A stretch of DNA of 64,000 nucleotides, taken from NCBI RefSeq assembly GCF_003334785.1, contig NZ_QOWV01000001.1, one strand, 5' to 3'. How positions within the stretch are numbered: the first letter of the stretch is position 1; each line of letters starts with the position of its first letter. Below are positions 20,547 through 25,274 of the stretch, piece after piece. The DNA comes from Escherichia coli. Lineage in GTDB: Bacteria > Pseudomonadota > Gammaproteobacteria > Enterobacterales > Enterobacteriaceae. Below the pieces are notes generated by a model. The model was not told the origin of the DNA, ran no database searches, and saw only the letters and a list, made by a program, of their open reading frames with translations. The position numbers were made by a program, and so were the translations under genes.

Positions 20547-23414
20547 TTAAAAGCTGAAGCGATATCCTCCGTTGACTTGCTTCTGATCAAAGAGGTTACC
20601 CTGCGTGTAATCCGCTTCGAGATAGAATGTGTGCTGTTTGTTATACTGTGCACTGACTCCCACGCCGTTATTCCAGCCATTACCTTTGAAACTGTACTTC
20701 TCCCGGGAGTTGTTCAACAGATATTCGGTATCCCCTGAAAACTCGCGGATAGCGCCAGTCTTCACATAGACATTCAGCTGGCTGTTGCCTGCGGTGATGT
20801 CATACCCCAGTATCATGCTGGCACGCCCCAGCAGCGATTCGTAGTGATTCAGATGTATATTGAGGCCATTACTCGCCTTCATAGTCATCTCATTCTGGTG
20901 GCTGTATGTAAGCTGGGTTTGCGGCTCTATATAGAACCCATAACCAGTAGGGGACAGGTTGAACCTCTGCCCGGCTTCCAGGGAGATGCTCATTCCATTC
21001 GCAGTGCCGTTGGCGTTAACGCCGTTGTTCTGACTGTCCAGTACGTGGAAACTATTTTTCTGGCGCGATGCTTTTATAACGAGATCGCTGTAAAAACCGT
21101 TTTGTGCCATGTAACTGGCGTACATTCCCATGTAGTCTGAACGTGCGGTACCGTCGCCTCCGCTATAGTCCGGCGATGCATGTGTTGAGCCAATATACAG
21201 ACCGACATACAACGGCATTACATCAGAGAGACGTTTATCCCCACCAAACTGGATACCGCTGTAACCCATGTCAAAGCCGCTCAGTTTGCCACTGGCAAAG
21301 GAGTCCAGGCTTCCCCCATAACTGCGCAACCAGATATTACCGTCTTTACTCTGATTTCGCAGGTCACCCATCCGTTGCATCAGCGTACGGTTTTCAACAT
21401 AGTTCAATAAGTAACCGACATTGAGATAATTGCCGCCAGCATCTGCGGTCGTGGTGGGTTTAGGCGTGGGAGCGGGTTCAGGCGTAGGATCGGGGTTGAC
21501 TATGGGAGGCTGAGCGGGAGCTGGTGTGGGTTCAGGATTAGGAGTCGGTTCCGGAACTGTCCCGGAAGCGTAAAGCTCCCAGTTAGTGCCATTTTTACGC
21601 ACATCGTACAGATATCCCCCCAACTCAACCTGAGAAGACGCGCTGAACGAGGCCGCGCCGTCAGTGGTTTTTACCACTGTCAGAACTTCATTTCCCGTTG
21701 TGGCCTCGCTGCCCTGGTTGCGGATAGCCAATACGTGATTACCAGCACTACTCCCGCTGATATTCAATAAATCCCCTTTATTATTAACGCCATTACCCTC
21801 GCCAACAACATCAGCACGCATAATAAAGGTACTGTTACCGCTCAGGTTCTCTACGTTTAATGTGGCAAATGTGCCGGCAGTTGACCCGTGGCTGGCAAAA
21901 TCGACAGTTGAATGGCTCAGCGCCAGCGTGTCGAGATTAGAATTACTTGTTACGTTCCAGACGCTGTTATTCATTGCAACGTCCAGTTTTCCGCCATTGA
22001 CATTATCGCTGAGGGAGGAACCTGTCCAAACCGACCCAGGGTGCATATCCAGATTGATTAGCCCACCTTTGGAAAGAACGCTACCGTTGATAAGCATACG
22101 ACCCGAGGCGTTGATGCGGCTGGCGGCATAACCATCGTCATGTTGCGTTGCGATGGCCATCTGGTCGGGTGTACTCATATCAATGACCAGATCGCTCGTG
22201 AGGTCGATCTGGCTGTTGGTCATGGCATAAATTCCCCTGGCTCCTGCCGCGCCGGTGATAGCCAAACTGTCTCCGGTTATTCTACCGCCGCTGAGAGCCC
22301 ACAAACCCAGCGCCAGACTGCCATTACGATCAACTGTAATATCGGTATTTTGCATGTTGACAACAGCCGTTGCCGTCTGGGCCGAGGCACCATAAGAACC
22401 GCCGGAAAAGATGCTGTTTCGTTGCGCTGCCGTGCCAGTAAAATTGATTATCGCGTCTGAACCACTGGTGACGAGGCCACCGCCCTGCGCGGAAGAAATA
22501 TGGCTATCTGCACCGATAGTGGTTGTACCACCACGAACTTCGACGCCATTGGCCGCGGCTCCAGTTACATCAACAGTGAGTGCATTCGCGCTAACCTGGC
22601 CAAAGCTCCAGAGGCCGTGAGCATTATCGCCATTGGTTTTAATGGTACTGTTTGTTCCGAGATCGACAACAGAGTTTTTCTGTACGTTTATCCCCATGGC
22701 GCTGTAGCCCTGAACATCGATTGTCAGGTCTGTAGCCGTAAAACGCGCAGCACCATTGGCGTTATTGCCGTTGAGACCACCGATATAAACACCTGTACTT
22801 CCATCGGTCGTGATTTTACTTCCGCTTCCAAGATCGACACTGGTGCCATAGTCATTGATGGTTAGGCCTATACCGTTCGAGTTTTCAATGGTGAATTGAG
22901 TGGCTGTTAGTGTTGAGCTATGCCCAATAATGATGCCGTCATCGTTACTCTTAATGGTGCTGCCTGTGCCTAAGTCAGCATGGGTATAGTCACCAATTAA
23001 GTTAATGCCGATGGCAGAGGTTTGACCAACAACATCTACTGTGAGTCGGTTAGCTGTCAGGGAGCTGTTTTTGCCCTGAATAATGATTCCTTTTGCATAT
23101 CCAGAGGCGTCGTTGACATTGACGGTGACATCATTACCCAGGTTGATATTGCCAGGCGTGTTTCCTGCTGGGGTCATTACACCATAGAGGTTTCCTGATG
23201 GATCGGCGGTATCTCCTGTAATTCTGTCACCATCATTAATAGTAATATTGGTGCCATATTGACTTCCTGTATCAGCAGCTATCAGCAGGGGGGAAAAGAT
23301 AATTGCATTCAAACCAATAGCGCCAAATTTTATCAGTTGAATTGAGGGCGAACGGATTTTTAATTCAGCGAGACGATCTGCTTTGGTATTCCCATTGTGT
23401 TGTTTGATGCCCAT
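20547..23414 (-). CDS. ycgV: Autotransporter (AIDA-like) adhesin: repetitive passenger plus C-terminal beta-barrel
   Basis: 955 aa; Gly/Thr/Ser/Asn-rich passenger repeats, Pro-rich linker (PEPTPNPEPTPAPAQPP), C-terminus ends ...GGYRFSF. Confidence 0.8.
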   Translation of the reverse strand: MGIKQHNGNTKADRLAELKIRSPSIQLIKFGAIGLNAIIFSPLLIAADTGSQYGTNITINDGDRITGDTADPSGNLYGVMTPAGNTPGNINLGNDVTVNVNDASGYAKGIIIQGKNSSLTANRLTVDVVGQTSAIGINLIGDYTHADLGTGSTIKSNDDGIIIGHSSTLTATQFTIENSNGIGLTINDYGTSVDLGSGSKITTDGSTGVYIGGLNGNNANGAARFTATDLTIDVQGYSAMGINVQKNSVVDLGTNSTIKTNGDNAHGLWSFGQVSANALTVDVTGAAANGVEVRGGTTTIGADSHISSAQGGGLVTSGSDAIINFTGTAAQRNSIFSGGSYGASAQTATAVVNMQNTDITVDRNGSLALGLWALSGGRITGDSLAITGAAGARGIYAMTNSQIDLTSDLVIDMSTPDQMAIATQHDDGYAASRINASGRMLINGSVLSKGGLINLDMHPGSVWTGSSLSDNVNGGKLDVAMNNSVWNVTSNSNLDTLALSHSTVDFASHGSTAGTFATLNVENLSGNSTFIMRADVVGEGNGVNNKGDLLNISGSSAGNHVLAIRNQGSEATTGNEVLTVVKTTDGAASFSASSQVELGGYLYDVRKNGTNWELYASGTVPEPTPNPEPTPAPAQPPIVNPDPTPEPAPTPKPTTTADAGGNYLNVGYLLNYVENRTLMQRMGDLRNQSKDGNIWLRSYGGSLDSFASGKLSGFDMGYSGIQFGGDKRLSDVMPLYVGLYIGSTHASPDYSGGDGTARSDYMGMYASYMAQNGFYSDLVIKASRQKNSFHVLDSQNNGVNANGTANGMSISLEAGQRFNLSPTGYGFYIEPQTQLTYSHQNEMTMKASNGLNIHLNHYESLLGRASMILGYDITAGNSQLNVYVKTGAIREFSGDTEYLLNNSREKYSFKGNGWNNGVGVSAQYNKQHTFYLEADYTQGNLFDQKQVNGGYRFSF

Positions 23415-24182
23415 ACCACTCCTATATAGTACCCAGACTATGGGTCTATGGATTTTGTCATTTTGTTTAAATCAATGAATAATATCCTCTTATCATCATG
23501 ATATTTGTATGGTGCAATCATGATGAGCTTCTCAGAGAATAATTCTCTATTACCGGGCAAAATCAGGAATACAGGAATTAATATATATTTAACATCCCCC
23601 TTACAAAGGTGAGTTTATATCGAGTTATTCCCTAAGTTGTCGTTACTTATTCCAATTCGTTACTATAAATATGGCAAAAATATTACAACAAACAGCGGTT
23701 AAAAAATTTGGTGAAGATTTTTTGTAATAATCCTAATTAGTTATGGGAATTTCGCTTGATGTATCTGCATAACAAAAACAATATGCGCCATTTTTGCATT
23801 ACTAATAAGAAAAAGCAAAAAACATCGATATTCATTTTTGGTCAATGGGTTTTCTGGCCTATCGTTGTTATTGTGCTACTGGTTATCATTTTCATCTTGC
23901 CAGCATATTGGAGCGTGATCAATTTTGATCAGCTGTGAAGGGGGCTGATGTGTAGTGATACAAAAACTTACGTTATATCACTGCTAATGAGATATCCGTC
24001 ATCTGAACACTTATGTCTTTAATTATTCTCGTGGTTCACTATAGGCAATAAGCACAAAAGTGTAGGATGTTACAAGAATGATTAGGACTAGGTGAAATGA
24101 AAAATCCACGCAATTGCGTGGATTTTATATACTTTTGCGCTCTTCATGAGATTTAGCGAAACCTCATGAGACAATAAATTAA

Positions 24183-25274
24183 TTAGACGTTGAAAAGGAA
24201 GTTCATCACATCGCCATCTTTCACGATGTAATCTTTACCTTCTGCACGCATTTTGCCTGCTTCTTTCGCGCCTTGTTCACCTTTGTAAGTGATGAAATCT
24301 TCAAACGAGATGGTTTGTGCACGGATAAAGCCTTTTTCAAAATCAGTATGGATTTTGCCCGCTGCCTGCGGCGCGGTTGCTCCAACCGGAATGGTCCATG
24401 CACGCACTTCTTTCACCCCAGCGGTGAAGTAAGTTTGCAGGTTCAGCAGTTTATAACCGGCACGGATCACACGGTTCAGGCCCGGCTCTTCCAGCCCAAG
24501 CTCCTGCATAAACTCGTCACGTTCTTCGTCGTCCAGTTCGGCAATGTCTGCTTCAACAGCAGCACAAACCGGAACCACAACAGAACCTTCTTTCGCCGCG
24601 ATTTCACGCACCTGGTCAAGATATGGGTTGTTTTCAAAACCGTCTTCGTTGACGTTGGCGATGTACATTGTTGGTTTCAGCGTCAGGAAGCTCAGGTAAC
24701 GAATAGCCGCTTTCTCTTCAGCGCTTAAATCCAGCGCGCGCAGCATACCTGCATTTTCCAACTGGGGCAGGCATTTTTCCAGGACCGCCAGCTCAGCTTT
24801 CGCGTCTTTATCGCCACCTTTGGCTTTCTTCTGTACGCGATGAATCGCACGTTCGCAGGTGTCGAGGTCTGCCAGCGCCAGTTCGGTGTTGATAACTTCA
24901 ATATCGTCAGCCGGGTTAACTTTGCCGGAAACGTGAATGATGTTGTCATTTTCAAAGCAGCGAACAACGTGACCGATCGCTTCGGTTTCACGGATGTTGG
25001 TCAGGAACTGGTTACCCAGACCTTCGCCTTTCGATGCGCCTTTTACCAGACCGGCGATATCGACAAATTCCATGGTCGTGGGAAGCGTACGCTGCGGTTT
25101 TACGATTTCAGCCAGTTGATCCAGGCGAGGATCAGGCATTGGTACGACGCCTGTGTTCGGCTCAATGGTGCAGAATGGAAAGTTGGCCGCTTCAATACCG
25201 GCTTTGGTCAGCGCGTTGAACAGGGTAGATTTCCCGACGTTGGGCAAACCGACGATACCGCATTTGAATCCCAT
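24183..25274 (-). CDS. ychF: Ribosome-binding ATPase YchF (Obg-family P-loop NTPase)
   Basis: 363 aa; Walker [10 protein letters not shown]; ends FNV. Confidence 0.9.

Follow-up and report, generated by a model that had tools for sequence, protein, structure and literature searches.

The stretch of DNA analysed here, hereafter referred to as the window, comprises 64,000 nucleotides (64 kb) from Escherichia coli. It includes ycgV (20547–23414, minus strand), the product of which is a putative autotransporter adhesin, and ychF (24183–25274, minus strand), both of which match their counterparts in NC_000913.3 (b1202 and b1203, respectively); positions in that record are obtained by adding 1232538 to those of the window. 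The spacer between the two genes shares 100% identity with that of strain JKHS016 and 99.6% with that of K-12, and no annotated feature lies within it in NC_000913.3 or in the other RefSeq E. coli records matched. The spacer and the part of it that has been described previously are the following.

23415–24182, no strand assigned: intergenic spacer between ycgV and ychF, 768 bp, 33.5% GC
About 23572–23872, no strand assigned: promoter island 1255333_301, given in U00096.2 coordinates and converted by adding 777 to NC_000913.3 and thence to the window

With a GC content of 33.5%, against 50.6% for the whole window, the spacer has the AT-richness by which promoter islands and H-NS-silenced regions are recognized. 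It is the lowest-GC 768-bp stretch in the window; only 0.09% of the 768-bp windows are equally low, and the runner-up among distinct low-GC regions has 39.7% GC. Among the six spacers of the dhaK–dauA neighbourhood it is also the longest, the other five measuring 54–277 bp. The first-pass annotation had described a long, AT-rich region upstream of ycgV, and the length and composition of the spacer bear out this description. Neither direct repeats nor a mobile-element signature were found within it.

The spacer is a published, H-NS-bound promoter island and, as such, is already known. Table 1 of Panyukov and Ozoline (2013; PMC3661553) lists the entry ‘1255333_301 ycgV(-)ychF(-)’ as one of 78 promoter islands in K-12. 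The H-NS column reads ‘A’ for this entry, denoting binding in all of the ChIP-chip studies compiled there (Grainger, Kahramanoglou, and Oshima). After a coordinate conversion inferred from the positions of ycgV and ychF, the island spans approximately 300 of the 768 bp and overlaps the start of the open reading frame (ORF) described below. The earlier statement that the region is of the kind often silenced by H-NS is thus supported by the literature, i.e., by the same Table 1, and not by data generated here. Moreover, a genomic-SELEX peak of the RNA polymerase holoenzyme has been assigned to the ycgV–ychF spacer (PMC5493296), and the LysR-type regulator YbdO was reported in 2024 to bind the ycgV-proximal 126 bp in an EMSA, and to repress ycgV, in an APEC strain (PMC11681634). 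The EMSA probe of that study corresponds to positions 23415–23540.

An exceptionally high density of promoter-like sites over at least 300 bp, which characterizes promoter islands, was reported by the authors of the list on the basis of PlatProm; we applied a strict scan for sigma-70 hexamers, and the two algorithms differ. The strict scan of positions 23300–24300 returned a single match against a mean of 4.9 in shuffled sequences, and thus the designation as a promoter island rests on the PlatProm algorithm of its authors. The 10-bp H-NS nucleation motif TCGATAAATT, searched with up to two mismatches, occurs 64 times in the window against 65 expected, and the spacer is not enriched in it. The motif of a published intragenic sigma-54 site (IS15, PMC4591121), TTGGCTCAACACATGCA, is present in exactly one copy, at 21177–21193 on the minus strand, within the coding sequence of ycgV.

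At its right-hand end the spacer carries the 3' UTR of ychF, the folding of which (-27.8 kcal/mol, z = -4.77) yields two hairpins with a U-run after the second.

24144–24169, minus strand: first hairpin of the ychF 3' UTR, located between the stop codon and the terminator and conserved across strains
24101–24126, minus strand: intrinsic terminator of ychF, a perfect 13+13 hairpin followed by a U-run

The terminator is almost invariant among 14 strains and is kept in ST131. T-runs occur on both strands of the terminator hairpin (24101–24140), so that it is potentially bidirectional and could also stop a plus-strand transcript coming from the AT-rich region. At a permissive threshold, Rfam reported two matches to Leu_leader with scores of 33 and 31 bits, as compared to a gathering score of 50; since both of them lie on the ychF terminator hairpin, they were rejected as terminator look-alikes.

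Substitution densities were calculated for successive blocks of the spacer as events per column of the 14-strain alignment. Two blocks and one promoter-like site are of relevance to ycgV and to the DNA upstream of it.

23415–23545, minus strand: conserved ycgV-proximal block of 131 bp, presumed 5' UTR and core promoter
23455–23483, plus strand: sigma-70-like hexamer pair TTGTCA-17-AATAAT, a consensus match only
About 23939–24095, no strand assigned: most variable part of the spacer in the 14-strain alignment, with substitutions and small indels

The ycgV-proximal block accumulates 0.038 events per column, the lowest value in the left part of the spacer. The non-coding DNA at 23546–23755 follows with 0.105 and the ORF with 0.097, i.e., both change at the same pace, and the block at 23939–24095 reaches 0.176, including five indel columns. 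Positions 24096–24182 are again almost invariant. The conserved parts of the spacer are therefore the approximately 130 bp adjoining ycgV and the ychF terminator, and not the ORF. The ycgV-proximal block contains the Shine-Dalgarno sequence of ycgV, AGGAG at 23419–23423, the duplex of which with the anti-SD sequence is worth -7.6 kcal/mol. It also contains an inverted repeat at 23493–23526 with perfect arms of 10 nt (TCATCATGAT ... ATCATGATGA), inside which two ATCATGAT palindromes are spaced 22 bp apart. As this repeat is part of the best-conserved block on the upstream side of ycgV and falls within the probe bound by YbdO, we propose the pair of palindromes as a candidate operator. The TTGTCA-17-AATAAT pair, which is the single match of the strict sigma-70 scan, is directed away from ycgV and towards the ORF.

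The census of complete genomes indicates that most of the spacer is accessory, as is expected of promoter islands, which are associated with accessory or acquired genes. It is present in 4,096 of 5,426 complete genomes. Genomes of the ST131/B2 type share with the window only positions 24094–24173, and an integrase-bearing island replaces everything to the left; the segment missing from them has its right-hand end at 23939–24093. Thus, the accessory ycgV segment accounts for approximately 680 bp, the ORF among them, and the core gene ychF for approximately 90 bp. In the ST131 strain 751, homology starts at the foot of the ychF terminator (approximately 24094), and just past this junction a tyrosine integrase gene accompanied by IS elements (L003:3702-5092) stands where ycgV and dhaR would otherwise be. 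The DNA immediately past the ychF terminator thus resembles a boundary at which island content varies, without the involvement of a tRNA gene.

Two further observations concern ycgV itself. In the O157:H7 strain Z1767 (L002:2250-4000), ycgV is annotated as a truncated pseudogene that has lost its C-terminus, and the upstream spacer is kept. The pseudogene abuts a partial ORF of 126 bp at the place where dhaR starts in K-12; this ORF is probably a remnant of dhaR, with a single deletion having removed the 3' parts of both ycgV and dhaR. In a scan of one genome per species, the N-terminus of YcgV was found on no contig other than those derived from E. coli. Fragments of YcgV with 100% identity to E. 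coli do occur on JAEWQO010000123.1, a MAG labelled ‘Actinomycetes bacterium’, and on NZ_JADCSA010000422.1 of Nocardioides malaquae, and these almost certainly represent contamination with E. coli DNA.

The ORF within the spacer lies on the strand opposite to both genes.

23756–23938, plus strand: ORF of 60 codons, with possible starts at TTG 23756, ATG 23759, and ATG 23783 and the stop codon TGA at 23936–23938
23895–23904, plus strand: junction of a 75-bp indel within the ORF, located from the strain alignment and the junction census

The product would comprise 60 amino acids from the TTG or 59 from ATG 23759, with a lysine-rich N-terminus followed by a single hydrophobic segment that includes WVFWPIVVIVLLVIIFILPAYW. 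The hydrophobic stretch that had been noted in a 60-aa frame at these positions is accordingly confirmed. The length of the ORF is unremarkable, since an ORF of at least 60 aa arises in 45% of the spacer shuffles that preserve dinucleotide composition, in which the median longest ORF is 57 aa. Its hydrophobicity stands out more. The best Kyte-Doolittle mean over 19 residues is 3.06, at which a transmembrane helix is predicted, and this value was reached by none of 1,264 shuffled ORFs of at least 40 aa. Of the 27 hydrophobic codons, 70% have T at the second position. The local T-rich tract is lost, however, when the whole spacer is shuffled, and the choice of frame was made afterwards, so that the excess of hydrophobicity is not a proof of coding; given this post hoc choice of frame, the bias towards T at position 2 (19 of 37 T's; estimated chi-square approximately 5.6, df 2) is marginal. 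We regard the extreme hydrophobicity as suggestive of coding, now or in the past, but not as evidence for it.

The first-pass annotation had also found no obvious ribosome-binding site, which proved roughly right. Upstream of the ATG, at a distance of approximately 10 nt, there is only a GGGA that is polymorphic at 23748–23749 and forms a weak duplex with the anti-SD sequence (-4.2 kcal/mol, as compared to -4.0 for pth, -7.6 for ycgV, and -13.8 for ychH). The supplements of acid-stress Ribo-seq data have no entry for the position of the ORF. The ORF is unannotated in NC_000913.3, a record that carries small proteins such as the 47-aa YpaB. Automated pipelines have sometimes given it the label ‘membrane protein’. 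In the records CP032515, CP030768, CP028192, and CP027437, the locus-tag numbers skip between ycgV and ychF (e.g., from RS21200 to RS21215), and it may be that one or two earlier ORF calls in the spacer were withdrawn on re-annotation.

Protein-level searches returned the same locus only. The 93 matches among 5.8 billion proteins are all length or frameshift variants of it, those that name a source come from E. coli or Shigella, and the seemingly ‘divergent’ ones prove to be the same DNA translated with frameshifts. When 1.84 billion cluster representatives were screened with HMMER in filter-only mode, no further homologue emerged, and comparison to Pfam and NCBIfam gave no significant match. 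With tblastn against plasmids, only E. coli records were recovered, several of them chromosome-sized (4.8–4.9 Mb), and a distant blastn search of phages with the 845-bp long form of the spacer returned nothing. YpaB, the product of a small annotated ORF that precedes yfaL, a related adhesin gene, was considered as a relative and rejected, being hydrophilic and without evident similarity on inspection.

Many strains carry an additional 75 bp inside the ORF, corresponding to 25 codons in frame, which are absent from the window and from K-12. The census over 5,426 complete genomes distinguished three major forms.

Short junction, 75 bp absent, product of 59/60 aa: 1,988 of 5,426 genomes
75 bp present with an internal TAA, product of 67 aa: 1,841 of 5,426 genomes
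75 bp present with CAA instead, open-frame haplotype, product of 84 aa: 276 of 5,426 genomes

Their sum of 4,105 nearly matches the number of genomes with the spacer (4,096). In one sampled strain with the CAA haplotype, the frame ends at a TGA instead, and the product would be 61 aa long. The 75-bp segment has a GC content of 48%, shows no terminal inverted repeats by eye, and is bounded by a direct repeat of GCCAG, one copy of which is left in the window at 23900–23904. From the sequence we read the difference as a probable deletion through GCCAG microhomology in the K-12 form rather than as an insertion.

The substitution pattern of the ORF is that of non-coding DNA. Among the 14 strains, the 84-codon frame has sustained 5 synonymous changes and 19 non-synonymous ones, including two nonsense changes (13, 5, and 6 substitutions at codon positions 1, 2, and 3, respectively), for a pN/pS of 0.96. 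For comparison, 17 synonymous changes and 1 non-synonymous change were counted in these strains over the 3'-terminal 99 codons of ychF (pN/pS 0.02), and 7 and 9, respectively, over the 5'-terminal 100 codons of ycgV (0.41). Both the pS (0.099) and the pN (0.094) of the ORF equal the synonymous rate of ycgV (0.096). In a binomial test, omega values of up to 0.3 (p approximately 0.01) and up to 0.2 (p = 0.0005) are rejected; the 24 substitution events are few, and a weak constraint with omega of approximately 0.5 is still compatible with them. The first-pass annotation had proposed a codon-substitution analysis as a check and had left the choice between a small membrane protein and a mere open frame. 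The analysis across strains now favours the open frame, together with the segregating stops, the indel, and the lack of homologues, and it speaks against a gene for a membrane protein. Purifying selection and a conserved frame, as would be expected of such a gene, were not observed, given the pN/pS of 0.96, the two independent nonsense alleles, and the coexistence of 59-, 67-, and 84-aa forms. Most likely, the ORF is without protein-level selection and is accidental or, at most, a decayed relic.

We consider it highly likely that the spacer is a non-coding, H-NS-bound control region of ycgV and that the ORF within it is fortuitous. The composition, anatomy, terminator, polymorphism, and neutral substitution pattern on which this reading draws were established here, and the binding of H-NS and YbdO is taken from the papers cited. 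In the arrangement we propose, the right-hand 90 bp or so (24094–24182) would be the 3' UTR and intrinsic terminator of ychF and belong to the core genome, and the transcript of ychF, presumably together with that of pth, would be terminated at the hairpin at 24101–24126. The other 680 bp or so would constitute an AT-rich upstream control region that accompanies the accessory autotransporter gene. Coating of this DNA by H-NS, as reported in the literature, would keep ycgV silent under laboratory conditions, silencing by H-NS being our inference from the reported binding. The proximal 130 bp would provide the translation signal of ycgV, its presumed core promoter, and the candidate operator palindromes. 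The ORF on the opposite strand would be an accidental frame that owes its membrane-like appearance to a T-rich tract in a frame that places T at position 2 of the codons.

We think it unlikely that the ORF is the remnant of a gene for a membrane protein of approximately 84 aa, with one or two transmembrane segments, which arrived with ycgV and has since lost its function, leaving premature stop codons and the 75-bp deletion free to segregate. Such a history would account for the extreme hydrophobicity and for the preference for T at codon position 2, although the latter is marginal once the choice of frame is allowed for. It would also agree with the 84-aa form, which is open in 276 genomes and has a plausible positive-inside N-terminus. 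Alleles containing the 75 bp occur on every haplotype background seen, and the short form occurs on two of them (K-12-like and PT62-like), each of which has relatives with the 75 bp; this distribution suggests that the long form is the older one. Against this stands the failure of the protein, HMMER, plasmid, and phage searches to find an intact or diverged homologue, and the scan of one genome per species offers no outgroup by which the changes could be polarised.

The probability that the ORF is instead a functional, lineage-specific small membrane protein is in our view very low. According to this proposal, some 48 N-terminal residues would be translated and the C-terminus would be dispensable, perhaps in a proto-gene that emerged only recently from silenced, AT-rich DNA. 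Codons 1–48, which encode the lysine-rich and hydrophobic parts, are uninterrupted in each of the 14 strains and in every one of the three major length forms, and ATG 23759 is invariant in the strain alignment. The weak GGGA precedes this codon, a transcript could be framed by the consensus-like plus-strand promoter at 23455–23483 and the two-way ychF terminator, and automated pipelines occasionally call a membrane protein. However, the same 48 codons have 2 synonymous and 10 non-synonymous changes, the latter including, within the hydrophobic stretch, replacements of G by D and of P by S, H, or L. Furthermore, the curated K-12 annotation lists the 47-aa YpaB and not this ORF, the gaps in RefSeq locus tags may reflect withdrawn calls, and the region is reported to be H-NS-bound and transcriptionally silent (PMC3661553). 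It is therefore improbable, judging from the sequence, that a product of codons 1–48 would be translated once silencing by H-NS is lifted, as a very young small membrane protein restricted to E. coli. If the ORF were truly translated, it would represent a clean case of a species-restricted proto-gene.

A module resembling type I toxin-antitoxin systems, in which an antisense RNA would hold off a small, toxic hydrophobic peptide, is scarcely credible, since beyond the general look of a small, hydrophobic, intergenic ORF that lacks a strong SD sequence, the ORF matches no toxin family in Pfam or NCBIfam, the spacer matches nothing in Rfam except for the sub-threshold terminator look-alikes, there is a single copy per genome, and nonsense and indel alleles are frequent on a neutral background of substitutions.

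The highly likely reading, i.e., a control region of ycgV with a fortuitous ORF, adds nothing new in kind; it confirms a published promoter island and gives a reasoned ground for leaving the ORF unannotated. More generally, a T-rich tract within silenced, AT-rich DNA easily passes for a small membrane protein, and a within-species census of length alleles combined with a count of synonymous and non-synonymous changes, controlled by the neighbouring genes, permits a quick resolution of such ORFs.

Among known systems, the type I toxins Hok, Ldr, Ibs, and TisB resemble the ORF in being small, hydrophobic, and without a strong SD sequence. Most type I toxins of E. coli are shorter than 59–84 aa. 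The comparison was rejected because the ORF has no family match, is present in single copy, and is freely disrupted in the population.

The Dam/OxyR switch of Ag43 (flu) is called to mind by the location of the spacer upstream of an adhesin gene of the Ag43 family and by its two GATC sites, at 23917–23920 and 23927–23930. These sites are 10 bp apart and lie in the last codons of the ORF, and the first is lost in O157 through an A to G change at 23918. In a preprint (10.1101/2022.12.14.520158), ycgV is among the biofilm genes tied to differentially methylated GATC sites in evolved clones. An Ag43-type switch was nevertheless rejected, as the GATC sites number only two, one of which is polymorphic, and are approximately 500 bp away from the start codon of ycgV.

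With the small membrane proteins of E. coli that have been validated by comparative genomics, models of the ribosome-binding site, and ribosome profiling, the ORF shares its size, its single hydrophobic helix preceded by a positively charged N-terminus, and its intergenic position. Unlike them, it is not conserved across species, its pN/pS is neutral, stop codons and a 25-codon indel segregate in it, its SD sequence is weak, and it is unannotated.

The spacer, itself a listed member, shows no material difference from the promoter islands, although a high density of sites is not reproduced by our simple hexamer scan and the published island covers only approximately 300 of the 768 bp. It is AT-rich, it lies upstream of a gene for an accessory surface protein, and it is missing from part of the species; in the same Table 1 (PMC3661553), the yfaL/ypaB island is likewise situated upstream of another autotransporter gene.
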